A stretch of 63,999 nt of DNA, the filler included, from an uncultured Methanoregulaceae archaeon (GTDB lineage: Archaea; Halobacteriota; Methanomicrobia; Methanomicrobiales; Methanospirillaceae): the NCBI GenBank assembly GCA_964530035.1. It is 5 parts of 5 records of this genome, joined end to end, with 100 filler letters (N's around TTAATTAATTAA, not from the genome) between each part and the next. Parts side by side here need not be neighbours in the genome. Positions count along the whole stretch, not along the records: positions 14,522 to 28,745 come from CAZGXZ010000056.1; 4 more parts are not named here. One strand, 5' to 3'. The notes under the pieces were generated by a model. The model saw only the letters and a list, made by a program, of their open reading frames with translations, ran no database searches and was not told the origin of the DNA. Below are positions 14,422 to 57,319 of this stretch, piece by piece; within the stretch, counting starts at the first letter, position 1; each line of letters begins with the position of its first letter. The translations under genes were made by a program, and so were the position numbers.

Positions 14422-14521
14422 NNNNNNNNNNNNNNNNNNNNNNNNNNNNNNNNNNNNNNNNNNNNTTAATTAATTAANNNNNNNNNNNNNNNNNNNNNNN
14501 NNNNNNNNNNNNNNNNNNNNN
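14422..14521. other. Artificial contig linker
   Basis: 44 N + TTAATTAATTAA + 44 N. Confidence 0.98.
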
Positions 14522-14910
14522 TCGTGGACAAAGGAGATAAACTGGTCATTTCCGGAACTAATTCCCTGTCAAAAACAACTTTTCTCTCTATCAGGGGTCC
14601 GGTCATGAAAAATATGGAAACCTCATTGCATAATTCACGCGTGCCCATCGAGGCCGACAATGCCACAACCTTTACGACATCCCCTGTTGTTGATGGGACG
14701 TGGAAATATACCTGGAATACGGAGTCATTTGATTATTCCGGGGGGACTTACGAGATCATAGCCTCGGGGTATCCCTTCCCGTCTACGAGTCTGAACGATT
14801 CACAGTATGCAACCACAGGAATTATTATCCGTATCCCTGAAAAGAGAGTACGGCCACTTATTGATGACGGGGACTCCTCTTCCGATGGCGGGTCGGCTGA
14901 TTCCATCTGA
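14522..14910 (+). CDS. 3' fragment of an S-layer-like/surface glycoprotein domain
   Basis: GDKLVISGT...DGTWKYTWNT...GTYEIIA resembles repeat domains of Methanomicrobiales surface proteins; 5' end lost at linker. Confidence 0.5.
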
Positions 14911-15252
14911 TTCATTTTTTTAACAACGGGTGATGAGGTCATGGGTTCTGCTATTTCATTTCAATCAACGATGGTCCATTCGGAGTTTTGACTTCGGTTC
15001 AAACGGATGGTCTTTTCTGAACTTCATTCGGACCCCTGGTGCTTTCCAGGTCACGGAAAATAGTCAGGGGAGATATTCCAAAGGTTCCACCTTTCTCCCG
15101 ATTAACCCAGGATTATGAGGAAATCGCGACTTTTTCATGGCAAACGGAAAAAGATGTCATTTTGTATCACAGGGTATTCCTAAAAAAAAGCGTAAATGTT
15201 TTGGCCCTGGCATGGACATCCTTTTCTATATACCTTGTGGAGACAGGACCTG

Positions 15253-15975
15253 ATGGCGATACCAGACACGAAGATAGATCTTTCAAAATCTGATGCAGAC
15301 AAGCTTGACCAGATTTTTGGGGCTGCAGCTCTTCCTTCTGATTCTGATGAAATTCCAGCAGACAAGGATACCCCCGAAATGGTTCAGAGTATAAATACCC
15401 CAGAGCCTGCTATTGTTGAACCCCTTCCTGAAAAACCTGAAAAATCCCAGATTCGTCCCTGGGTCAGGTTTTTTGCCCGTTACATTGACCTGGGTATCTC
15501 GACGGCTATTATTTTTACGATTCTCCTGGGGTTGGCGATACTATCCGAACCACTTCAGATAGCCCTGGTCAACCTGAATCCTTTGGCGGATATCATCATT
15601 ACGACCTTTATCAGCATCACGTTCTGGATTCTCGTTTTGGAACCAGTATTCATTTCCCGTTTTGGAGCCACACCGGGAAAAATGCTGCTTAAAGTATCTG
15701 TCAGGGACGCAGGGGGAGCCCTCCTGACCTATAACCAGGCTCTTTCCAGGTCGGTTCAGGTATGGAGTCGTGGGTATGCCTGCGGGATTGTCGGATTGAA
15801 TATTATCACTCTGTTGATCGCCAGTTCGGTTCTGGAAAAGAAAGGCAGGACCTGGTGGGATGCCAAGGGAAACATTACCGTGAGGCATGAAATCATCGGG
15901 GCTGCCCGAGGGACATTGGCGGTCATCATCATTGGGGCCATCTGGATTATCCAGCGTTTTCTCATGATGATTTAG
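15253..15975 (+). CDS. RDD family membrane protein
   Basis: RPWVRFFARYID, GATPGKMLLKVSVRD, RTWWD. Confidence 0.85.
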   Translation: MAIPDTKIDLSKSDADKLDQIFGAAALPSDSDEIPADKDTPEMVQSINTPEPAIVEPLPEKPEKSQIRPWVRFFARYIDLGISTAIIFTILLGLAILSEPLQIALVNLNPLADIIITTFISITFWILVLEPVFISRFGATPGKMLLKVSVRDAGGALLTYNQALSRSVQVWSRGYACGIVGLNIITLLIASSVLEKKGRTWWDAKGNITVRHEIIGAARGTLAVIIIGAIWIIQRFLMMI

Positions 15976-16087
15976 GAGGATACCCTAGAGCGTTATTTTC
16001 AAAAAAATGTCCCGAGGGTCATGCCCGATGAACCTCTGACAGTTTTTCTTTTTTGTGAGGATCTCACGGGATCCTCATTATCGACGT

Positions 16088-17467
16088 TTAGATGAATTTG
16101 AACGTGGAAATTGCAGTCATCCCGGTAGGCAATCCATTTTCCCAGGTTTTCGTCGGAGCTACATATTGAACCATGACAATCCTGCCGTTTGACCAGGTGG
16201 CAAGGCTATAGGTCGTATAAAGGAGACCATCGTCGGTTGACTGGGTACTGATGAACGTCATCGCCTTGTTTCCGCCGAGTTTACCCTGGTTGGACTCGAT
16301 GACATAACCTCCATTCTCCTCCGCATAATCTTGAAATACTGTCTCTAAATTGTCAAGAGTAAGTCCGGATCCGGAAAAATCTGTCTTAATAACTGCAATT
16401 ATCAACAGGTAACCATTCTTGGAATCCGAAAAGGTGGTAATTGTGCTATCCTGATTGCTGCTCGTTTTTAATAATTTCAGTGTTGTAGGAATGCGGAAAT
16501 AGTATTTGGGGGTTGAAGTTGACTTTTTGTAAATCCCCCATAACTCTGTTGAAACACCGGTGACTGAAATTTTGCGTTCGAGAACGGTCGTTTTAGTCAT
16601 GCCATTCTTTTTAATCGTGAGCTTCGGGATGTAATTCCCAACCTGGTAATAGGTATGGGTTGGACTCTGTTCGGTCGATGTAGCACCATCTCCGAACTCG
16701 TAAAGATAGGAATCGGCATCACCTGATGACTTGTCCGTGAACACGACTTCTAATGGGACTTTTCCCGTTGTTTTGTCAACGGAAAACTTTGCAGACAGGG
16801 TCGGGGTAATCACGGCAGACCCGCTGCCGCCTGATCCGAGTTTGAACGTATTGATTACGGTCGTTGCCGAACCAAGGTTCGAAGAGTAATAATAGGGATC
16901 TACAATCCAGTTCACAGAATACAGGTAACCTGATGAATCCAGCTGGGTAACATGATACATCCGCATCTGATCCCCGTTGAAAGGAAAATCAGCAACGAAA
17001 TATACCGCCTGCTGACCACCAAGGGTTGTTAATCCTTCTGATACAATGCTTGCACCGAATGAACTCTGAAGGGCGGATCGCGCTGCGGCCTTGAAATCTT
17101 CAATATTGGGCTTGGACGTAAAAATCTGTTTTTTTGACCGGCTTATCATGAAAAGGCTTGTATAACTGGTGTCAGGGGTAATTGTCAAAATGTCGGTGGA
17201 TGAATGACTCGTGTCATACTTGCTCGTATACGTGGAGGGTACCTGAATGGAATAGTACGGGGTTGATACAACTTTGAATGTTTCCTCTGCGTGCTTCACT
17301 GCGACAGGCGGGAGGGGTATATCCTGTTGCAGGCACATCGAAGCCTGGTTTTCATACTGAAGTATAAGGGCTGAATTTTCATCCGAATCTGCAAGGGTAC
17401 AGGATCCAGATATCAATACAATAAAAGCTATTATACCAAGTGCGATGAAGAATGGGTGCGACCGCAT
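16088..17467 (-). CDS. Secreted protein: PsbP/DcrB-like domain - PKD - PsbP/DcrB-like domain
   Basis: Signal peptide; central PKD (PLEVVFTD...FGDGATSTEQSPTHTY); two similar flanking domains with LGG..A..F and ending in [NS]TFK. Confidence 0.6.
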   Translation of the reverse strand: MRSHPFFIALGIIAFIVLISGSCTLADSDENSALILQYENQASMCLQQDIPLPPVAVKHAEETFKVVSTPYYSIQVPSTYTSKYDTSHSSTDILTITPDTSYTSLFMISRSKKQIFTSKPNIEDFKAAARSALQSSFGASIVSEGLTTLGGQQAVYFVADFPFNGDQMRMYHVTQLDSSGYLYSVNWIVDPYYYSSNLGSATTVINTFKLGSGGSGSAVITPTLSAKFSVDKTTGKVPLEVVFTDKSSGDADSYLYEFGDGATSTEQSPTHTYYQVGNYIPKLTIKKNGMTKTTVLERKISVTGVSTELWGIYKKSTSTPKYYFRIPTTLKLLKTSSNQDSTITTFSDSKNGYLLIIAVIKTDFSGSGLTLDNLETVFQDYAEENGGYVIESNQGKLGGNKAMTFISTQSTDDGLLYTTYSLATWSNGRIVMVQYVAPTKTWENGLPTGMTAISTFKFI

Positions 17468-17608
17468 ATACTTCTCACTCTCTCTCGTGCCAATACTTAA
17501 TGTAATCGAAATTGCTCACCATGAGACCAGATGTCCGAGTCCGGCCGAATTGCAGGTCTTACACGAAAGAGGGCATTCATCGCCAGGACAGGAAAGGGTC
17601 TTTGAAAA

Positions 17609-19141
17609 TCAGGGTTTTTTGGTTGTCCTGGCAGGGGTTGGATTTTTCCTGGCGGGTGTTGAAGTGGCTGAAACCATGGGGGTCTGTTTATTTGATTTCA
17701 TCATCTTAACTGCAGCACCTGCATTCAGGCGGCCTCCGGTGACCGATAAGGTATCCTGACCCTTGATGGGGTCAACGGTTGAGAGGATACATGATTTTAT
17801 TCTGCTTACGGGGGCTTTTTTGTCCAGGGAAAGAAGGAGTCCAGAGGTCCCGGCGACAAGGGGGGTTGAATAGGAAGTACCATCGCTGTAATAATAAGAT
17901 GACCCCGATCCCTTCATCAGGACAAATCCTCCTGGAGCGGCCAGGTCTACGCTGGTTTTACCATAATTTGACCAGTCAGTGAGATATTTATCTTTCTGGT
18001 CTGTGGCGCCGACGGATATGATGTTCTCAAGTGACAGTGATGAGGGATAATGGAGATGGGTGTCGGTATCGATGCCATCATTTCCGGCAGAACATACGAA
18101 CAGGACTGAAGGGCTGGAAGCGATGACCTCTTCCTCCGCGGGATCATATATATACGTCCCGAACGAACAGGATATCACTCGTGCTCCAACCGATTTTGCA
18201 TACATTATTGCCCTCACTTCACTCCAGGTGGTCGCATCGAATTTCAGCGGGAGTATGGATGCCTGCCACATGACTCCCGTGATGTCAATGTTGTTGTTTC
18301 CAACGGATCCAATGAGCCGTGCACAGTCCGTTCCATGATAGGACAGGGCGTCGTATGGAGCTTCTGGGCTAGTATCCGGGTCCCCCTCCCCGATACTTAC
18401 AATCCCATCCCCATTTTCATCATAAAAATCCCAGCCGAACTTGTCATCGATATAGCCATTATTATCATCATCCAAGCCGTTTTTTTGCTTTTCACGGGGA
18501 TTTTTCCATATATTGGGTAAGAGATCAGGTTCGGTAATATCAACTCCGCTCGGGTCCAGGACCGCGATGATAACGTCCCGTGAGCCGGTCGTGTAGTCCC
18601 AGGCCTCAGGAGCGTGAATATCTGACCTGTAGGATCCTTTCAGGTTCTGGACCGTACCGCCCTTGTTATAGAGATACCACTGACCAAAGAATTCAGGATC
18701 GTTTGGAAACTTTCTCTCTACCTTCTTTTTAAAATTAGGCTGGGCATAAGCAATTTTCGGGTCTGTTCGTGCGGTAGAAAGAGCATCTTCAACGGACATG
18801 CCTTCAGGAAGCCGGATGAGCTGAAGGCCGGGGAGTCCGGAGGGGGCCATGTCAGCGGCTATTGTCGGGTTGTCTTTCCCTTTTTTAACTGATCGCAGTG
18901 TTGATAAAAAATGCTCCTGTGACTCAGCAAATATGGATTCATTTCTCACTATCTCTTCACGGTAGCGGACTATGATTTCCCGGGGTAAATAACCGGTATT
19001 CTTTTCGAGTAAAGAAAAAGAGGTGTCATTGTTTTGAAATTGAGATAACAAAGGGTCAGATTCCGAGGATACCTGCCCTGGGATGCAGGATGCCAGAACA
19101 CAGAGCAGTAACAACAAGCTGAGCATCGAATACCGTTTCAT
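17609..19141 (-). CDS. Secreted S8 (subtilisin-like) serine peptidase with propeptide
   Basis: Triad motifs IAVLD, HGT, GTS; oxyanion SAGND; SNYGKTSVDLAAPG; GGRLNA. Confidence 0.92.
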   Translation of the reverse strand: MKRYSMLSLLLLLCVLASCIPGQVSSESDPLLSQFQNNDTSFSLLEKNTGYLPREIIVRYREEIVRNESIFAESQEHFLSTLRSVKKGKDNPTIAADMAPSGLPGLQLIRLPEGMSVEDALSTARTDPKIAYAQPNFKKKVERKFPNDPEFFGQWYLYNKGGTVQNLKGSYRSDIHAPEAWDYTTGSRDVIIAVLDPSGVDITEPDLLPNIWKNPREKQKNGLDDDNNGYIDDKFGWDFYDENGDGIVSIGEGDPDTSPEAPYDALSYHGTDCARLIGSVGNNNIDITGVMWQASILPLKFDATTWSEVRAIMYAKSVGARVISCSFGTYIYDPAEEEVIASSPSVLFVCSAGNDGIDTDTHLHYPSSLSLENIISVGATDQKDKYLTDWSNYGKTSVDLAAPGGFVLMKGSGSSYYYSDGTSYSTPLVAGTSGLLLSLDKKAPVSRIKSCILSTVDPIKGQDTLSVTGGRLNAGAAVKMMKSNKQTPMVSATSTPARKNPTPARTTKKP

Positions 19142-19449
19142 TCACTTCCTCGAGAAGATAGTAGAACCCAGAAATGAAGAAGATTGTGTTTTCTTTTTTG
19201 GATCGCTCCTGCTAGTCAATGGAGAGAACATTTTTGGCAGTTTGATCGTTCGCCCCGACCTTAAATGAACTGGTCCGTGAACTGTGTATTTGGCATACAA
19301 TGGAAAAAAACGGCCCTGTTGAAACGCACATGAACGGGAGTCCACACCTGAACCATGAAAGTTTCCCATCTAAAATCTCTTTATTAAGAGACCATTTTTA
19401 GCATTTTCATAGGAAATGCTTAAAAGATAAAAAAAATCCTCTGATGGGT

Positions 19450-19498
19450 AATGGCGGTCAGAAATTCCTCATTTACGGCGGAATGTCAGACCGCCATT
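19450..19498. repeat. 49-bp inverted repeat
   Basis: AATGGCGGTCAGAAATTCC-N11-GGAATGTCAGACCGCCATT, 17/19 complementary. Confidence 0.7.
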
Positions 19499-19819
19499 GA
19501 CAATTGAAGGCCTATGGATTCTTATTTTAGACTCATACCAATGTATACCTGTTTTTAATCCTGCTTTTTCAAACACCAAAAAGGAATGAATTGAAAGAAG
19601 AATATGCGTACACTGATATTTTGTTTACATGGCTTGACAACGTTCAATCCCACAGAATTGTTTGACCTTTCGATGATATTCCTCGATCCCCCATGAAATT
19701 TTTTAGTTATTCATGTCGTCCCGGGTTCCCGGATATAAGGTCTGTATGCCCAACCGGGGAATTTCATTCCGCCGCAAGTGAGGAATTTCAGACCTCCATC
19801 AACACCGCTCTTTGTTTTC

Positions 19820-20011
19820 ATGCCAAAGCTGATACAGAGGGATATGAAGGCGGATACAGGTGCGTTTATCGATGCGTTCGGGAAGAACGAACAGATGAAG
19901 AAAGTGTTCTGTGCATTGTTCATAGAGATGGCCGGGCTGGTGCTGGCCTGGGTTGTTGACCCGGTCACATCTCAGCAGGTGGTGGGGAAGATTACGGGGA
20001 TGGGAGTGTGA
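19820..20011 (+). CDS. Small hypothetical membrane protein or gene remnant
   Basis: Hydrophobic C-terminus MAGLVLAWVVDPVTSQQVVGKITGMGV. Confidence 0.3.
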   Translation: MPKLIQRDMKADTGAFIDAFGKNEQMKKVFCALFIEMAGLVLAWVVDPVTSQQVVGKITGMGV

Positions 20012-20028
20012 AAAAGAAAAACGGTGTC

Positions 20029-20808
20029 TTACCTTTTTATCTTTTTCATGATATTCTCAAATCTTCCATTGCTGATTGGATGAGGACTGATGACCTCACC
20101 ATTATACATGATGCAGAACGTCCCGAATGCACACGGGGATTCCTGGGCAGCAGCTGCGTCTTCCAGATCGATAAGCCGGGGGGTCAGGCCATACTTTTTA
20201 TTGGCGGTTTCCATGATGGCAGTCACGTTCTTTTCGGAATACGGGCACTGGGCCGAGCGCAGGATGGTTAAACCGTCTGCATATTTCTCCCGGCTCTTTG
20301 CCAGAGAGGGTTTGAACTTCGGATCAGGTGCATCCTGATCGAATTTCAGGGCAAGCAGTTCAAAATCGGGAGCTGCCATATCAGTCACGGCAAACCCTTT
20401 TTTCACAAAAATATCTTTTTTTGCCATGAACGGGCCTTTCCTTGTTACAACGGCAACGCCATGCATCCGTGCACGTTTTGCTTCGGCTATGCAGATGTCG
20501 ATCAGGGACGACGCATATCCCTTTCCCTTGAACTCGTTCCTGAATCCCACAAAGATACAATGAATGAACATATAACCGGCTGCATCAACAGGGCGGTGAG
20601 CATACTCTCCCGGAATATATTCAAGCATGCCCTGGTAACCGGCGCTCTTTGAAAAAAGAACCTTTATCCTCAATCCCTTCGGATAATACCGGTTGAACCA
20701 GTTGATTTTTTTTCTAAGTTCTGCATGCTTCCTGGTATCCCTGTACCCACAGACACCATAATCGGCAATATTTTCCGGGGTGAGATCAATGATTTCAGTA
20801 TCGCTCAT
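20029..20808 (-). CDS. GNAT acetyltransferase with C-terminal YoaP-like domain
   Basis: LEYIPGEYAHRPV, FIHCIFV, FKGKGYASSLI, QCPY...AQESPCAFGTF. Confidence 0.88.
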   Translation of the reverse strand: MSDTEIIDLTPENIADYGVCGYRDTRKHAELRKKINWFNRYYPKGLRIKVLFSKSAGYQGMLEYIPGEYAHRPVDAAGYMFIHCIFVGFRNEFKGKGYASSLIDICIAEAKRARMHGVAVVTRKGPFMAKKDIFVKKGFAVTDMAAPDFELLALKFDQDAPDPKFKPSLAKSREKYADGLTILRSAQCPYSEKNVTAIMETANKKYGLTPRLIDLEDAAAAQESPCAFGTFCIMYNGEVISPHPISNGRFENIMKKIKR

Positions 20809-20869
20809 GGTATATTTTCTGGTAGGTGGATTAAATAAAAGATCAAGTCTGCCTTAGGTGCTTTTTTGG

Positions 20870-21419
20870 TTATACCTGATGTTTGCGAATGACTGCTGCC
20901 AGACGGGTGAAAAAAATCGGCCGGAGTCTTTCTATCAGCAGAGCCTCGTTCATGGAAATCATCCCGCTGTCTTCGGTTTTCATCCGACAGGGTTCGATCT
21001 GGATGCAGCAGGTATTGATCAACCGCTCCCAGAACCAGTCGGCGCTCCCAAACTGGATATAATCCGGATTCAATGACGTCAGTGCTTCCACATCGGCATA
21101 CATCTCCCTGCCACCCGGGCTGTCCTGGATGCATATGGTGAGATAGGCGAGTCGGTAATGTACATTTTCAAGGGTGGACTGGTAACAGGAGGGTAAAACC
21201 AGATTTTCGATATCCGGCTGCTGTTCATGAACGAAGTGGCCAAAGCAGCACTGGGCCGTGAAACAAGAGGGTACCCTGATGCATTCCCGTATCATCGGGA
21301 CCAGAGGTGGATCGATGGAGCCCTTGTGGATTTCTTGATGGATATCCCGAATGGTTTTTTCCCGGTCAGCAAAAAATGAGGGGGAGATGGATGGGCCTTG
21401 CGGCGGTGAATGTTTCCAT
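20870..21419 (-). pseudogene. Hypothetical protein with apparent 1-nt frameshift near the 5' end
   Basis: ATG at 21419 gives METFTAARPIHL then stops; the frame of ORF 20870-21295 is open upstream (PSFFADREKTIRDIHQEIHKGSIDPPLVP); offset is 1 nt at a G5 run (~21380-21384). Confidence 0.5.
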
Positions 21420-22310
21420 TATCAACCTGTTGGCTGAATTTTTACTATAAAGGTTTTCCACTCCACTATGAGACGAACGCGGAGAATGTGTTGAATGTGT
21501 GCAACTCCTCGGTGTAGACCAAATTATTGTCTACCCTGCTGGGGAAATCAGGAGATGGATGGGAAGTAAACCTCTATTCATCCTGTGTTGGATGGCCCTG
21601 GAATTATAAGATCCGTCCCCTGAGGTGAAATGCGCTCAAATCGGGCTTTGTTCTCTCTCCTTCAACACCACACAAATCCGGAAATCCATGAATAATGCTC
21701 TTTTCCTGTTCCGGTGGAAAATACGCTCAAATATTGCCTTTTTTAAAATACGATTGGTTTGCACCTCGCCTAACAGCAAATAAAGCCCTTTAAATTGAGG
21801 CGAATCTTTCAGTACACCCCATGAAAGACAAGAAAAAGACTAGAAAAAAATAAGTGCCAGATAACACCTTTTCATCACCCCATATTGAATAAAGGCTCAT
21901 TAATCCATTTTGATTCTCACTGTTCTCCCCATCTCCCGGCAAAAACAACCTCCTTCTCATCCTCGAAATACCACCCCTCCCTAACAGGGTGATCCCTGGT
22001 TCCTGACTATCTGCCGTATCGGAACACTTCGGGATCCTTTCCATTGCGGCAGGAATGAAGTACTTGACAGGAACCCTGCCTATTGCCGGTCAGATGATTG
22101 AATTCCTGACCGAAAAGATGAGCAATGACCGGACTGCTTTTTAATGTATGGATCCATCGGGAGGGTCCGGCAGCCCGGCATCGGGAGGATCTATCAGTTT
22201 CGGGAAGCCGGTCTGATTTCCGGAAGGGGTTTAGGTATTCTCCGTCCTGACCTTTTTTCTTGAAAGACGTTATTGCGGTGGCCTTTCAGCATTTCAGGTC
22301 TGAAAATGTA

Positions 22311-22889
22311 TTATACCGCAGCCTGGTAGGCAAACTTGTACTGGGCGGTATCATCGGCGGTGTGGGGGAGGTAGAAAATAAACCGGATAGATTTTGTGGA
22401 ATCGGTATCAGGGACCTGGAAGGTTTCGGACATGATATAGGCGAGTACCCGTGACTGGTTTGAGACGACGTTTCCCTGGGTCCGCAGGGCGAATTCTGTA
22501 GAATTACAGGCGGTTGTGGTACTCATCGGAATCCTCATGAAATACGATGTCTCCTGGAAACACCCGACGCCCTTGTAAAACGGTTTGCTTTGAATGACAT
22601 TTCCCTGACGGTCCTCCATGTGGATCTCGGGGAGTTTCGTAGTATTCCTCAGGGTCAGGGCGTAGGGGAGTTCCACGAATTTGTAGCCGGTTTCAGGAGT
22701 GATGTTCTTTTGTTGAAACTCTAAGGTTTCGACAACACTGGGCTCATATATTCGGATATCTGCAAATGAATTTCCAAAACTGCTGTTGGCCATGACGGTA
22801 GTCGGGACGGTGACAGCCGGTTTTGATACGCATCCGCAGAATGAAATCATCAGGATGATGAAAAGGCTCAACAGGACGGTCTTTTTCAT
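22311..22889 (-). CDS. Hypothetical lipoprotein
   Basis: MKKTVLLSLFIILMISFCGC lipobox; TPETGYKFVEL. Confidence 0.7.
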   Translation of the reverse strand: MKKTVLLSLFIILMISFCGCVSKPAVTVPTTVMANSSFGNSFADIRIYEPSVVETLEFQQKNITPETGYKFVELPYALTLRNTTKLPEIHMEDRQGNVIQSKPFYKGVGCFQETSYFMRIPMSTTTACNSTEFALRTQGNVVSNQSRVLAYIMSETFQVPDTDSTKSIRFIFYLPHTADDTAQYKFAYQAAV

Positions 22890-23018
22890 GACATAGAGAA
22901 ATTGCCGGGTTGGATGATAAACTATGGCAGAAGGCAGCCAGGAGGTGCTTTCATCAGGGAGTCGATCATCCCACCGTCTCCCCGGATACCTATTTCCGTT
23001 GCCTGCAGAATTCATAGT

Positions 23019-23600
23019 ATGGACCGTGTCCTCCTCGTCCTGCTTCTTGCGTGTTGTATTGTTATAACGGGCTGTATCTCCGGTTCCGGGTCGGGAGCCG
23101 GCGAGAAAACCCCGGTCACCACACCCCCGGCGACCATTGTGAAGACACCGGTCGTCATCACGGCGACTCCTGTCCCCACCACGCTGAAACCCACTCCCAC
23201 CGTCGTATGCTCCCACCCGGCGACCGGAACGATGCTCATGTCTCCGTCGGTGGCGGGGTCAAAGTCCCTGACGGTGGACAACCAGAACAAGTACGATGCG
23301 GTTATCACGCTCCGCATGTCGGCAAAACCCCCTGAAAGCGGGGGAAAAGTACTGAGTTTCTATCTCCAGGCCCATGACCAGTATACAGTTCATACCATCC
23401 CGCAGGGCAGCTATACGCTCTGGTACAAACTGGGAGAGTGCTGGGACCCGGTTGCGAAGAAATTCGCCGTGAACAGGAACGCCGAACGGTTCCAGGACAT
23501 CCTCACCTATTCGTACAATACTGCCGGATTCGAGGCAAAAATTTACGGGGTATCGGACGGAAACGCCCTGACAACGGACGTTTCACCCGACATGGTGTGA
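23019..23600 (+). CDS. Hypothetical lipoprotein with Thr/Pro linker and beta-rich C-terminal domain
   Basis: MDRVLLVLLLACCIVITGC lipobox; LTVDN...DAVITL...IPQGSYTLWYKLG. Confidence 0.75.
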   Translation: MDRVLLVLLLACCIVITGCISGSGSGAGEKTPVTTPPATIVKTPVVITATPVPTTLKPTPTVVCSHPATGTMLMSPSVAGSKSLTVDNQNKYDAVITLRMSAKPPESGGKVLSFYLQAHDQYTVHTIPQGSYTLWYKLGECWDPVAKKFAVNRNAERFQDILTYSYNTAGFEAKIYGVSDGNALTTDVSPDMV

Positions 23601-23611
23601 CGAGGGGAGAA

Positions 23612-25081
23612 ATGGGGACCACCCTTCTTGCTGCCATGATTGGGCCGGACGGCAAAGGTCTGATCATGAATGTGGGGGACTCGCGGGGCCACCTGATCGA
23701 CGGAAAGATACTCCATACACAGAACCAGAACCTGGCACGGGACATGGTCGAGTCCGGCCGTCTTACCGAAGAGGAGGCCATGAACCATCCCTCCTCGAAA
23801 ATTGTCAACCAGGCACTGGGTGAGATCGAAGCCCCGGTCCCTGATTTCTACGAGTTTGATATTCAAGGAAAATACCTTCTTCTTTCATCTGATGGCCTTC
23901 ATGACTTCGTGCATAAGGAAAGGATTCGGGAGATCGTCCTGGAACACGGAAGCAATCCTGGAGGTGCTGTCAGGTCATTGATCGATGAAGCACTCCGGTG
24001 CGGCAGTGATGATAACATCACGGTGGTCCTGGCCTGGCAGGAAACAAAGAATACGAATCAATCCAGGGTTGAGACACAGGATGAGTTCCAACACAATACA
24101 GATCCCATAACCGGTCTTTCCCAATCACCAACACGGGGTAGAATCCCAAACGAGAAAGATGAAAATTTTGTCATCATAGGGTGTGGGCGGGCCGGGATCA
24201 GGATACTAAACCAAATTGGGCATGTTCAGGAACACTCCGTTAAAACCGTTGCGATTGACACAGATCTGCGTGATCTTGAAGCATCAGGGAGTGATATGAA
24301 AGTTCACGTGGAAAACACCCATGCCAGATTTCAGGGAGAGGGAAGTCCTCAAGAGGTTGCGGCCGCGGTGCTTGATGCTGAACCTGATTTGGCATTCCTT
24401 TTCGGACCATCAAAAACGGTACTCATCGTTGCGGGTCTGGGAAGAGGTGCCGGAACAGGTTCTGCACCGCAGATTGCGAAGATTGCCCGTGACCGGGGAG
24501 CGCTTGTTATCGCAATTGTTTTCTACCCCTTTCGAATCCAGGAAAGAACAATCCGGCAGGCAGAATCCGGACTCGGGCAGCTCCTTGAATATGCCGATTC
24601 AGTTATCGTCCTTGACAATCAATGTTCCCGTAATTTTTTTCCTCATCTATCCATTGAACAGGGATTTGCGAAATATAATGAGATCATTGCCGACCTGATC
24701 CGGGCCCTCTTACGAAGCCTGACTGTTCCAATCCCATTCGGCCTTGATATGGATGATTTCAAGGCGATTTTTAAGAAGAAGGGATTTTCAACAGTCCTGA
24801 TGGGAAAGTCCCGGAAACAAGACCAGAATAAAAATGAAAGTGCCGTGAAAGGATGCATAAACAACCCCCTGTGGGATATTGATTACAGGAGTGCAAAGGG
24901 CTGTCTCGTCCTGGTTACAGGGGGAAACAACTTCGACCTGATAGATGCGGAAGAAATTACGACCTCAATCACTTCAGATATTGATCCCCACGCAGACGTA
25001 GTCTGGAGTGCTGAAATCAACCGGAACCTGGATGAGGAAACACAGGTGTATGCCATAATGACAGGGATTCGGGTGGAATGA
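23612..25081 (+). CDS. Fusion: C-terminal half of a PP2C/PPM phosphatase + diverged FtsZ GTPase domain
   Basis: MGTTL, NVGDSR, LLSSDGL, GSDDNITVV (PP2C); IIGCGRAG, AIDTD, GLGRGAGTGSAP, VLDN, LDMDD, NPLWDIDYRSAKG, AIMTGI (FtsZ); GAGGGGAG upstream of ATG 23612. Confidence 0.85.
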   Translation: MGTTLLAAMIGPDGKGLIMNVGDSRGHLIDGKILHTQNQNLARDMVESGRLTEEEAMNHPSSKIVNQALGEIEAPVPDFYEFDIQGKYLLLSSDGLHDFVHKERIREIVLEHGSNPGGAVRSLIDEALRCGSDDNITVVLAWQETKNTNQSRVETQDEFQHNTDPITGLSQSPTRGRIPNEKDENFVIIGCGRAGIRILNQIGHVQEHSVKTVAIDTDLRDLEASGSDMKVHVENTHARFQGEGSPQEVAAAVLDAEPDLAFLFGPSKTVLIVAGLGRGAGTGSAPQIAKIARDRGALVIAIVFYPFRIQERTIRQAESGLGQLLEYADSVIVLDNQCSRNFFPHLSIEQGFAKYNEIIADLIRALLRSLTVPIPFGLDMDDFKAIFKKKGFSTVLMGKSRKQDQNKNESAVKGCINNPLWDIDYRSAKGCLVLVTGGNNFDLIDAEEITTSITSDIDPHADVVWSAEINRNLDEETQVYAIMTGIRVE

Positions 25082-25241
25082 TATGATAATAAATTGGATT
25101 TGATAAAATCACGAGTATAGGATCCCAAATCCATTAACAGGAATATATAGAGACTTTTTTTGAAATTTCAGCTGTTATTGAACACATTTCCCATGCCGGG
25201 CATCTGATGAGTACCGAGGAGCATCGGACTAAAAGTCTGAA

Positions 25242-25316
<75 letters not shown>

Positions 25317-25571
25317 AATTGCCCTGCTATGTTGTCCGTGATTCCACTTAAGTCTGACTATTCCGGGCCGGACTTCGGCACGTTTCCGACCGCGAACAGG
25401 CCCGTGCACCCTCCTGATAGTCCCAGGTGCGGAAGGAGATGGCCCCGGGACTCCTGCCGGATCCCCTCCAATCCATACTTAGATCCCCTCCGATCTCCCC
25501 GGCAAAAACCCCCGGGCCACCGCCACCCAACATCACTTATATCACTGCTCCGTGCGAATGGATAGGAGAAC

Positions 25572-26684
25572 ATGGCTGGCCTTGAAGAGCAGATCCGGGA
25601 GATCGAGGACGAACTCCAGCGGACGGTCTACAATAAGGCTACGTCCAAGCATATCGGCCGGCTGAAGGCCAAGCTGGCACGGCTCCGCGACGACGCGGTC
25701 ACCCGTGCGATGAAGTCGGCCGGGGGCGGCGAAGGATACTCCGTCAAGAAATCAGGCGACGCATCCGTCGTCCTCGTCGGCTTCCCTTCGACCGGGAAGT
25801 CGACGCTCCTCAATACCCTGACCGGGACGAAGAGCGAGGTCGGTGCCTACGCCTTCACGACGCTTACCGTCGTCCCGGGGGCCCTGGAACACAAGGGGGC
25901 GAAGATCCAGCTCCTCGATATCCCGGGCCTGATCGCCGGGGCGGCCATCGGGAAGGGCAGGGGAAAGGAGGTTATCGGTGTCGTCCGCTCGGCCGACATG
26001 ATCGTCATCCTCGTCGACGTCTTCAACGAGAAACACGTCGACGTGCTTTTAAAGGAACTCTACGACGCCGGGATACGGGTCAACACCCCAAAACCCGACA
26101 TCACTATCAAGAAGTCGATGCTCGGCGGGATACGGGTCAACACGGTCGGGGCGCTCGACCTCGACCTCGACGAGATCCGGTCCATCCTCGGCGAGAACAA
26201 GATGATGAACGCCGATGTCCTCATCAGGGGCAACGCGACCCAGGACGAGCTCATCGACGCCCTGATGGGCAACAGGGTCTATGTCCCGGCCGTCATCGCC
26301 GTCAACAAGGTCGACCTCATCGAGAAGTCCACCTGCAAGGCCATCGAGGATGACCTCGTGCGAAGGTTTGGCCAGCCCCCCGAGATGATCTCGGCGGCGA
26401 CCGGTTACCACATGGAACACCTCAAGGACCGGATCTACGACGCACTCGGATTCATGAGAGTCTACTTAAAACCCCAGGCCGGCGAGGCCGACCTCGAGGA
26501 GCCACTCATCATCAGGACCGGGTCGGGTGTCGAGGACGTGTGCCGGAAGCTCCACCGCGACTTCGTCGACCGCTTCCGGTATGCCCGGATCTGGGGGAAG
26601 TCGGTCAAGCACCCGGGCCAGCGGGTCGGTCTCACCCACCGGTTGAAAGACGGCGACCTCATGACCATCATCATCGAGCATTAG
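25572..26684 (+). CDS. DRG/Rbg-family (OBG class) GTPase with TGS domain
   Basis: YNKATSKHIGRLKAKLA, GFPSTGKST, YAFTT, DIPG, NKVD, QRVGLTHRLKDGD. Confidence 0.95.
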   Translation: MAGLEEQIREIEDELQRTVYNKATSKHIGRLKAKLARLRDDAVTRAMKSAGGGEGYSVKKSGDASVVLVGFPSTGKSTLLNTLTGTKSEVGAYAFTTLTVVPGALEHKGAKIQLLDIPGLIAGAAIGKGRGKEVIGVVRSADMIVILVDVFNEKHVDVLLKELYDAGIRVNTPKPDITIKKSMLGGIRVNTVGALDLDLDEIRSILGENKMMNADVLIRGNATQDELIDALMGNRVYVPAVIAVNKVDLIEKSTCKAIEDDLVRRFGQPPEMISAATGYHMEHLKDRIYDALGFMRVYLKPQAGEADLEEPLIIRTGSGVEDVCRKLHRDFVDRFRYARIWGKSVKHPGQRVGLTHRLKDGDLMTIIIEH

Positions 26685-28430: not shown

Positions 28431-28630
28431 CCGGGGGGCTGCTGCCCCCCATACCCCCTGCATACGATAGCCATGGCAAGCCGTTGGCGATTCCGTCATC
28501 AGGGTTGTTTATGGAGGGTTTTTATAGTTTTTAGTCTTTAGTGAGATTTTTTCCCGGTTCGAAATCTTCATGAAAGGCCGTGAAACCGCCGCCGGGGCGC
28601 CCTTCGGGGGCGGCGGGGTATCTTTCCGGG
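28431..28630 (+). repeat. Dispersed hairpin-rich repeat, copy A
   Basis: CCCCCTGCATACGATAGCCATGGCAAGCCGTTGGCGATTCC and CGCCGCCGGGGCGCCCTTCGGGGGCGGCG shared with copies at 43181 and 52859 (opposite strand). Confidence 0.9.
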
Positions 28631-28650: not shown

Positions 28651-28745
28651 CGAGCTGTTTTTGTTTTCACCTTGAACAGTCAGAGGAATGGAGGGATGAG
28701 AACCGGGGGGCTGCCGCCCCCCAAACCCCCTGCATACGATAGCCA
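28651..28745 (+). repeat. Dispersed repeat, copy A2 (tandem, cut by contig end)
   Basis: GTTTTCACCTTGAACAG...GGGGGGCTGCCGCCCCCCAAACCCCCTGCATACGATAGCCA. Confidence 0.9.
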
Positions 28746-28845
28746 NNNNNNNNNNNNNNNNNNNNNNNNNNNNNNNNNNNNNNNNNNNNTTAATTAATTA
28801 ANNNNNNNNNNNNNNNNNNNNNNNNNNNNNNNNNNNNNNNNNNNN
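28746..28845. other. Artificial contig linker
   Basis: N-TTAATTAATTAA-N, 100 nt. Confidence 0.98.
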
Positions 28846-43040: not shown

Positions 43041-43140
43041 NNNNNNNNNNNNNNNNNNNNNNNNNNNNNNNNNNNNNNNNNNNNTTAATTAATTAANNNN
43101 NNNNNNNNNNNNNNNNNNNNNNNNNNNNNNNNNNNNNNNN
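43041..43140. other. Artificial contig linker
   Basis: N-TTAATTAATTAA-N, 100 nt. Confidence 0.98.
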
Positions 43141-57219: not shown

Positions 57220-57319
57220 NNNNNNNNNNNNNNNNNNNNNNNNNNNNNNNNNNNNNNNNNNNNTTAATTAATTAANNNNNNNNNNNNNNNNNNNNNNNNN
57301 NNNNNNNNNNNNNNNNNNN
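57220..57319. other. Artificial contig linker
   Basis: N-TTAATTAATTAA-N, 100 nt. Confidence 0.98.

Follow-up and report, generated by a model that had tools for sequence, protein, structure and literature searches.

What does half a phosphatase do at the head of a cell-division protein? The question is raised by one gene in a 63,999-nucleotide (nt) stretch of DNA (the window) from an uncultured Methanoregulaceae archaeon (GenBank assembly GCA_964530035.1), in which the back half of a PP2C-type protein phosphatase runs through a polar linker into a tubulin-family protein derived from archaeal FtsZ2, here called FtsZ'. With confidence that stands about midway, the gene was read as a real, lineage-specific fusion, likely made by a rearrangement beside a transfer RNA (tRNA) gene, in which a likely inactive PP2C back half provides the start of an orphaned, tail-less FtsZ2 paralog that would likely cap and shorten the host's FtsZ2 filaments.

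The fusion gene and its joins

The gene is a single frame of 489 codons (23612-25081, + strand), with its ATG 11 nt past the stop of a lipoprotein-like gene at 23600. Its parts and the gene in front of it are as follows.

23019-23600, + strand: lipoprotein-like gene, 193 residues, complete to the last residue (sequence; relatives)
23601-23611, + strand: purine-rich, Shine-Dalgarno-like spacer of 11 nt, CGAGGGGAGAA (sequence)
23612-24040, + strand: C-terminal 143 residues of a Stp1/PrpC-type PP2C phosphatase (NF033484 match, alignment)
24041-24145, + strand: polar, A-rich linker of about 35 codons (sequence; bounds by eye)
24146-25081, + strand: FtsZ', an FtsZ2-derived paralog with the full fold (Pfam, alignment, model, tree)

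The PP2C motifs were located at residues 1-4 (MGTT), 22-25 (GDSR), 93-96 (SDGL) and 133-137 (DDNIT), and the Pfam domains Tubulin (187-337) and FtsZ_C (396-486; E 1.5e-22) were both complete. A sequence-only reading of the locus had described one 489-codon frame joining PP2C C-terminal motifs through a polar linker to a full FtsZ core, and sequence and Pfam matches bear it out. A longer start at GTG 23438 (547 residues) was rejected; it overlaps the lipoprotein gene and adds none of the PP2C motifs, and the protein collection does not contain it.

Contig C56 (14,224 nt), which carries the gene, belongs to a 2.36-Mb assembly that is 86% complete and fragmented into 229 contigs, and this fragmentation speaks for an assembly chimera or a sequencing error such as a lost stop, the two faults on which the sequence-only reading would have fallen. 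The joins were nevertheless recovered with 0 differences on one contig across 22000-25252 in run X1, on a contig across 22000-24454 in run X5, on a contig across 22000-24197 in run X14 (not flagged as a possible source), and on two contigs in run X9. Both joins were thus identical in 4 of 4 runs compared, from 4 studies. At least 0.94 of the stretch's words were present in 14 of 24 listed runs (6 studies), the runs holding it being mostly from digesters and bioreactor sludge, and the fusion protein was identical on 6 contigs from three sources. A chimera or error is accordingly regarded as highly improbable. Over about 3.2 kb there were 0 differences in four studies; the lineage looks clonal, and therefore no polymorphism test is possible.

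Within the PP2C half, the Stp1 PP2C model NF033484 was matched over positions 90-231 of 232, with 106.6 bits against a cut-off of 230. The half starts at the Met of MGTT (model position 90), and the first ~95 residues are absent. Motif 1 (RxxNED) and motif 2 (DGxGG), noted earlier as missing because the lipoprotein gene stops 11 nt upstream, were absent from the three upstream frames checked. Alignment with 14 whole PP2C proteins showed GDSR, SDG and DNIT in place and the aspartates D23, D94 and D133/134 kept. In these motifs and the flap region the half resembles Stp1/PrpC-type enzymes (S. aureus Stp1, 5F1M), from which it differs by the missing front and by an Asn in place of the otherwise invariant Asp of the TKDH motif. 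Its closest relative among the best 120 of 5124 matches was a whole protein of 243 residues (P0123, 68%), which ends 8 residues past DDNIT; the half derives from ordinary phosphatases of 240-250 residues. In PP2C, motifs 1 and 2 carry metal ligands, and truncation at MGTT removes part of the core sheets. Lacking both metal-binding motifs and ~95 residues of the fold, the half is likely without phosphatase activity, and the earlier impression of an inactive fragment is upheld to that extent.

A front half of the same PP2C subtype was not found in the host genome assembly. A split phosphatase with its front half elsewhere was rejected, as five N-terminal halves gave no match better than E 0.24, and PP2C_2 pieces on contigs C15 and C161 were rejected as that front half, since they form one whole TerY-P-type gene over a contig break, the sole further PP2C of the assembly. 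At the end of C15 and the start of C161 (genome G000), genes for a von Willebrand factor A (vWA; TerY-like) protein, a PP2C and a kinase-like protein follow one another across the break, which we take to be a TerY-P-type triad. GC content at third codon positions was 0.62 in the PP2C half and 0.47 in FtsZ'; this was rejected as proof of two donors, because intact clusters show the same contrast (0.52-0.72 vs 0.40-0.52).

The fusion was found once. Its 90% protein cluster has one member. When proteins of 268-856 residues were searched, the best 120 of 3418 matches included none but the fusion itself with a query cover above 65%; 16 of them stood at 42-57%, each 311-352 residues long. With the PP2C half as query (241-2000 residues), a tubulin domain was present in 0 of 119 others (best 120 of 5124). 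The linker and FtsZ' together (190-606 residues) gave 35 proteins at E<1e-40 among 7721 candidates, none covering more than 92%; the best relative of the FtsZ' part stood at 57% (59% for a fragment). In 40 related genomes the PP2C and FtsZ matches always lay in separate frames, and every relative seen of either part was a separate gene. No second fusion was found in the three protein searches or the genome searches, which may miss distant fused forms, and the fusion protein as sole query had no match in a first metagenome scan. The top-ranked matches in the open-access literature described neither a PP2C-FtsZ fusion nor a methanogen family or cluster of this kind; members could be listed in the supplements of PMC7159879 and of PMC9856176, the latter treating non-canonical tubulin-family proteins in its available text. 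The idea of half-PP2C-FtsZ as a conserved protein architecture finds no support in these searches.

The FtsZ' family

FtsZ' was modelled with a predicted local distance difference test score of 82.3 and a predicted template modelling (TM) score of 0.85, the T3 loop being disordered. Against M. jannaschii FtsZ (2VAP) the model gave a TM score of 0.89 and a root-mean-square deviation of 2.4, so the two-domain FtsZ fold is predicted to be intact. The N-terminal helix is absent and the chain stops where the core stops; the lack of a C-terminal tail had been read correctly from the sequence. The Methanomicrobiales FtsZ2 rows aligned have 36-59 further residues beyond the core. The canonical FtsZ model TIGR00065 scored 214.3 bits against a cut-off of 295.2, below which the family members P0002 and P0251 also fell.

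The sequence-only reading had also pointed to altered FtsZ motifs. These are present, as GRAG (R193), GRGAGTG (R278, A280) where canonical T4 reads GGGTG[ST]G, and GLDMDD (G377, D379, D382) for the T7 motif NxDxxD, in fusion-protein numbering, and against M. jannaschii FtsZ the window's copy shows G47R, N51R, N70D, A97E, G133R, T135A, E165Q, R169T and D212N. They proved for the most part not to be peculiar to this gene. Motifs were tallied (M. jannaschii numbering) in 35 family members, which are related and in part near-copies, against 20 canonical FtsZ1/2 proteins; P0249, P0251 and P0254 (judged near-copies), P0255 (a fragment), P0244 and four matches of 377-382 residues were left out. In T1, Asn51 was lost in 35/35. 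Asn70 of T2 had become D in 33/35, and in T3 Ala97 was E or D and Gly99 was D or N, each in 32/35. Thr135 of T4 was lost in 34/35, with G133 replaced by R in 16/35. Both T5 positions, the ribose Glu165 (Q in 29) and Arg169, were lost in 35/35, while D212 was N in 20/35. N192 was kept in all 35 members and the catalytic D238 of T7 in 34 of them. GRAG was found in 2/35. In FtsZ the T1-T5 positions contact the nucleotide. By this comparison most of the altered motifs are an inherited family signature.

The family formed one clade of 24 rows (SH-aLRT 100) nested in Methanomicrobiales FtsZ2, and placement outside FtsZ2 was rejected by the approximately unbiased test (p=0.009), in agreement with the FtsZ2 resemblance noted earlier. 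The trees were quick ones, with a long stem (1.2) and the exact sister unsure. A tree with putative CetZ rows suffered from long-branch attraction and was rebuilt without them. Putative CetZ genes of the relatives matched at E 1e-7 to 3e-4 vs 1e-74 for FtsZ2, and a CetZ identity was rejected on the FtsZ_C Pfam domain of the window protein, CetZ being without a Pfam C-domain in the available text of PMC9871819. Identity with FtsZ-like 1/Tubulin_2 was rejected as well, there being no Tubulin_2 match and the members having just 311-352 residues; one family member gave a sub-threshold Tubulin_2 match. The nearest FtsZ homologs and the family's neighbours are from Methanomicrobiales, the closest from Methanoregulaceae. 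Canonical ftsZ2 (C70) and ftsZ1 (C53) are both kept in the host genome, with 39% and 34% identity, respectively, to the FtsZ part of the fusion.

The ratio of nonsynonymous to synonymous substitution rates (dN/dS) of FtsZ' against relatives was 0.12-0.19 in 6 of 7 pairs, with dS near saturation; the seventh pair was saturated. Between close family relatives it was ~0.3. Of 55 conserved columns FtsZ' retains 49, the sixth-lowest count among 24, vs 31% of the variable columns. Neutral decay was rejected on the 0.12-0.19 ratios and the conserved columns, and sequence comparison indicates purifying selection on FtsZ' for most of its long branch; the view of a repurposed tubulin-family domain that does not evolve neutrally is upheld. 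Identity within the family was 35-91% vs 63-93% for FtsZ2. Family genes checked at their 5' ends (L021, L022, L024, L026, L102 twice, and L023/L101, which are one gene) each had an ATG of their own.

In fold, FtsZ_C domain, tree position and T7 aspartates the family resembles archaeal FtsZ2 as treated for H. volcanii in the accessible part of 10.1101/2020.06.04.133736; it differs in lacking the N-terminal helix and tail, in its replaced GTP contacts and in its accessory distribution. The truncated FtsZ paralogs of Hyphomicrobiales (A. tumefaciens FtsZ1; PMC13732431, available sections) are likewise duplicates of the host division FtsZ without linker and tail. Those paralogs strictly conserve the GTP pocket, whereas in the archaeal FtsZ' family the pocket is rebuilt and the genes lie in conflict-like clusters.

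Another genus (G007) has short FtsZ2 duplicates with short tails outside the family (L181:3925-4902 and L182:6344-7366), in which GGGTGTG is intact and the T2 Asn is Asp. Duplication of FtsZ2 with tail loss has occurred more than once in the order. At a contig end of G002 (L183:6136-7097), two consecutive partial FtsZ C-domain frames lie upstream of ribosomal-protein genes, from either a tandem duplication or a misassembly.

Gene clusters of the relatives

In 401 genomes of the order there were 8 family matches in 7 genomes (the window's own, G246, G387 twice, G343, G093, G224 and G304), that is, in 6 of 400 other genomes. The cut was set at 372 bits or more, canonical FtsZ2 reaching at most 343; more diverged paralogs below the cut are uncounted. 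All six other carriers belong to the window genome's taxonomic family (220 genomes scored). The family proteins carry the database label 'cell division protein FtsZ' and have thereby been hidden in databases.

In 6 of 6 GTDB carrier genomes ftsZ' lay in a shared cluster, with losses and reordering. ParA-like and winged helix-turn-helix (wHTH) genes diverge from genes for a MoxR-type AAA protein, a ~600-residue protein, an archaemetzincin-like protein, a VIT-vWA protein and a ~250-residue protein; there follow, often, a SIS gene, one or two ftsZ' genes and TIR-NTPase-TPR or WD40 genes. Four metagenome loci (L021, L022, L024, L026) showed portions of this neighbourhood. The cluster copies from Methanoregulaceae, recognised by gene content, are as follows.

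L244:3535-18635, cluster copy
L245:8682-19553, cluster copy
L246:3764-19364, cluster copy
L243:826-6583, cluster copy
L102:1-15359, cluster copy
L101:1773-14452, cluster copy

'MoxR' is the label given here to AAA_5/AAA_3 matches. AAA and vWA genes were both found in L102, L244, L245 and L246; the short contig L243 had the vWA gene alone and L101 the AAA gene alone. The pair of ParA-like and TrmB-like wHTH genes was found in L101, L102, L244 and L245. MoxR-vWA ternary conflict systems have a third core component (VMAP, iSTAND, FtsH or beta-propeller); the ~600-residue protein after the AAA gene had no Pfam or NCBIfam match, its Atlas look-alikes being partly DUF5682 (18% of one cluster). No PADLOC system matched the core genes of the cluster beyond weak domain matches, and the clusters contained no recognisable GAP1 or GTPase gene. 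Two FtsZ paralogs per cluster were found in 4 of 6 genomes. The second paralogs are separately derived (L243:1566-2699, L244:7604-8749, L246:7993-8997); two, of 377-381 residues, have GGNMGT in the T4 loop and keep the N-terminal extension, and one of 334 residues has near-canonical GTP loops.

A whole PP2C gene stood directly behind ftsZ' in G343, G093 and G224, 5.5 kb upstream in G246 and ~45 kb off in G387; no such PP2C was found in G304 at E<1e-45. The cluster-type PP2C subtype occurred in 16 of 227 genomes of the taxonomic family. PP2C and FtsZ' are thus true genomic neighbours. This partly bears out the coupling of phosphatase and FtsZ proposed from the sequence, though the relatives have the two in separate genes, arranged mostly the other way round. 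Of 20 cluster proteins, 16 had no match in the host genome at 1e-5 and the other 4 matches look like housekeeping homologs. The window's FtsZ' is an orphan, unless its partners are unassembled.

Several known systems share parts of this setting. FtsZ-like 1/Tubulin_2 genes with vWA and kinase genes (PMC2875224, as far as its available text goes) are tubulin-superfamily genes among vWA, Ser/Thr signalling and conflict genes, and the tubulin-bearing GAP1-N2 systems (PMC7159879, available sections) likewise place such a gene among conflict genes. Both kinds of tubulin branch off deeply and separately and carry coiled-coil or helical extensions, whereas FtsZ' is a recent FtsZ2 offshoot. The consulted portion of PMC7159879 also mentions rare FtsZ/tubulin and inactive MinD/ParA effectors. 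The MoxR-vWA ternary systems described there resemble the relatives' clusters in the MoxR-type AAA, the vWA protein and the TIR-NTPase-TPR/WD40 genes. The clusters here differ in having VIT-vWA together with archaemetzincin-like, SIS and PP2C genes and two unnamed families. The ParA and wHTH pair recalls the archaeal ParA-wHTH system (10.64898/2026.10.19.760177, partial text), in which ParA is coupled to a PwHTH1-type wHTH. The window's own locus differs from both systems in having none of these genes.

Interest lies in the family and its cluster rather than in the fusion, which mainly shows how such genes travel and decay. Almost nothing is known of archaeal FtsZ inhibitors. An FtsZ2 paralog with its GTP pocket lost and its catalytic Asp kept would be a probe for filament polarity and for the roles of FtsZ1 and FtsZ2, and its TIR-NTPase and MoxR-vWA neighbours suggest that archaea may use division arrest as a defence output.

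Origin and possible action of the fusion

The surroundings of the fusion gene in contig C56 add two features.

25241-25317, - strand: tRNA-Glu(TTC) (ARAGORN)
14522-25240, no strand: low-GC accessory stretch of C56, left edge beyond the contig (GC composition)

The tRNA gene faces the fusion gene with its 3' end, 160 nt from where the fusion gene stops. The tRNA gene is the edge of the low-GC stretch, GC being 0.39-0.57 on its left and 0.55-0.63 on its right up to 28399. The stretch holds genes for an RDD protein, a PKD surface protein, a subtilase, a YoaP-like protein and two lipoprotein-like proteins besides the fusion; from composition and position it is inferred to be an island. Contig C56 showed neither an integrase nor a duplicated tRNA end, and attachment-site repeats were not seen. 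A viral origin was rejected, with no relative among viral contigs, as was a plasmid origin, with no plasmid record at 80% cover.

The left break can be narrowed down. The lipoprotein-like protein has a lipobox-like ITGC motif, a Thr/Pro-rich stalk and a ~130-residue C-terminal domain, and had no Pfam or NCBIfam match. Relatives of its gene (49-60%, 6 genomes) extend to residue 193/193, and a relative in run X1 (record 2) stops matching at 23594. At the loci of the 6 closest relatives there were no PP2C or FtsZ matches, and record 17 of run X5 (11 differences in 99 nt) matches from exactly 23612, its 104 upstream letters being off the window. Because of these two observations the breakpoint is placed in or beside the 11-nt spacer. 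The PP2C relative in X5 (~88%) added depth over 23612-24022 and none over the linker and the start of FtsZ'; the depth was 3-5 and was counted as no evidence.

That the PP2C half is a remnant is considered probable, and of the alternatives raised earlier a truncated remnant fits this half best. Whether it became one by rearrangement is about an even call. Several observations weigh against this account. Of 44 conserved columns the half retains 39, and with an end branch of 0.25 it shows no faster evolution than the whole P0123 (0.37); the truncation must therefore be recent or the half still constrained. The break is neat for chance, since the lipoprotein gene stays whole and the Shine-Dalgarno-like spacer is followed by an ATG in frame, and the order PP2C to FtsZ' is the reverse of that in the three direct-neighbour clusters. 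The searches gave no close unfused FtsZ' parent (57-59% at best), so the fusion cannot be dated, and in a genome 86% complete the partner genes may simply be unassembled. The linker, moreover, is more polar than plain read-through of a spacer gives. Only 15 of the genome's 2079 open intergenic windows, and 1 of 198 in the relatives' clusters, were equally polar.

The linker is open solely in the fusion frame on the + strand; a 36-codon window stayed open by chance in 15-18% of controls. The last in-frame ATG, GTG or TTG is at 24023; with no in-frame start inside the linker, FtsZ' could be made only from ATGs of the PP2C half. No TATA-like box was found in the linker, and it had no homolog among the proteins or loci compared. 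Its AT skew was reached by 0.8% of windows in the genome and 0.4% in the relatives' clusters, and its polarity was equalled by 2 of 3485 in-frame coding windows and by 23 of 434 in the +2 frame. These values have to be read with the bounds of the linker having been set by eye after the sequence was seen. When its bases were shuffled, 9% of open cases were as hydrophilic, and much of the polarity is therefore A-richness.

It is this unusual linker that earns some credit, on the unlikely side, for a different history, in which the gene is the damaged copy of an older, complete PP2C-linker-FtsZ' fusion from one cluster, where the intact ancestor tethered a phosphatase to an FtsZ paralog until a recent rearrangement swapped its front half for the lipoprotein gene. 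Besides polarity and AT skew, such a history would suit the loss of a start codon in FtsZ' itself, the PP2C directly behind ftsZ' in 3 of 6 genomes and 5.5 kb off in a fourth, the uneroded PP2C half and the long, unsampled lineage of the window's FtsZ'. It is opposed by the absence of any two-domain protein from the three size-bounded searches, by the sister P0123 ending so soon after DDNIT, and by the post hoc bounds and the A-richness of the linker. More doubtful still is the reading favoured from the sequence alone, selection of the gene as it stands, with the fragment serving as a phospho-protein- or partner-binding module that links the FtsZ paralog to Ser/Thr signalling. The clean start, the open frame and the three kept PP2C aspartates would fit, as would the host's Ser/Thr kinase genes (2 above the Pfam cut-off) and a T7 loop, unique to this copy, that could be an adaptation. 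Yet the gene is a singleton whose 0 differences in four studies leave no variation to show selection, the invariant TKDH Asp is lost, and the cut at MGTT takes away parts of the core sheets.

For the fusion read as a rearranged remnant, an action can be proposed that would hold for the whole family. In FtsZ filaments, the T7 aspartates of each subunit hydrolyse the GTP bound by the one before it. Because the GTP-contacting residues are replaced family-wide (Asn51, Asn70, Ala97/Gly99, Thr135 and Glu165/Arg169, several by acids), FtsZ' would bind GTP weakly or not at all. Through its T7 face it may still bind where an FtsZ2 filament exposes GTP and set off hydrolysis there, and, offering no GTP to a next subunit and no tail anchor, FtsZ' would act as a chain terminator and a brake on division. 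In intact clusters it would probably be released in a defence or stress response, with sensor, chaperone and phosphatase genes controlling division arrest. In the window's genome, where the partners are missing, FtsZ' would be an orphan with at most residual activity, and the half-phosphatase probably a passenger that supplies the sole start codon. The T7 role in FtsZ is treated in the accessible part of 10.1101/2020.06.04.133736, where a T7-mutant FtsZ2 mixes with the wild type and blocks constriction in Haloferax; in the available sections of PMC13732431 a truncated FtsZ paralog, when expressed, inhibits division in Agrobacterium. The earlier suggestion of a poison of division FtsZ is plausible for the family.

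Capping itself is held tentatively, somewhat short of an even chance. The first T7 Asp, D235, is kept in only 25/35 members, and in the window's copy alone (1/35) the T7 Asn is replaced by Gly within an altered loop, both Asp being kept; this loop may have weakened even a capping activity. FtsZ' is also only 39% identical to the host FtsZ2, and co-assembly may be lost. On the question of mechanism a slightly less favoured possibility is a nucleotide-poor scaffold or polymer for a MoxR/vWA conflict complex, like the GAP1-N2 tubulins and with no division role, in which the tandem paralog pairs would form a heterodimer. The two paralogs per cluster in 4 of 6 genomes, the wider spread of identities than in FtsZ2 and the proposal, in the available text of PMC7159879, of tubulin homologs as assembly modules in other conflict systems all agree with a scaffold. 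The recent descent from host-lineage FtsZ2, with FtsZ_C and the catalytic T7 Asp kept and the pocket decayed, fits action in trans on a GTP-loaded partner instead. A bolder synthesis, speculative and improbable as a whole, is that a defence-type cluster of Methanoregulaceae turned an FtsZ2 copy into a GTP-blind filament terminator gated by the MoxR/VIT-vWA pair, the TIR-NTPase sensors and the PP2C, and that the window's gene is the relic of a one-protein phosphatase-terminator.

Some minor features of the window were also recorded. It consists of contigs C55, C56, C57, C58 and C146 joined by artificial N spacers (14422-14521, 28746-28845, 43041-43140 and 57220-57319), across which gene order has no meaning. 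Near the tRNA gene, at 25293-26000, run X14 holds a second relative, ~90-96% identical, on the tRNA-drg side, the fusion side matching the window exactly. In genome G003 a tRNA-Glu gene likewise adjoins a drg gene; no drg match was found in the congener G001 (77% complete). At 19304-19420 lies a ~115-nt element resembling a miniature inverted-repeat transposable element, with copies 73-93% identical on 29 other contigs, many near contig ends; beside it are a hairpin (19450-19498) and a 35-nt inverted partner (19765-19799). A 43-nt direct repeat, 95% identical, occurs at 28431-28473 and 28703-28745, the second copy at the contig end.

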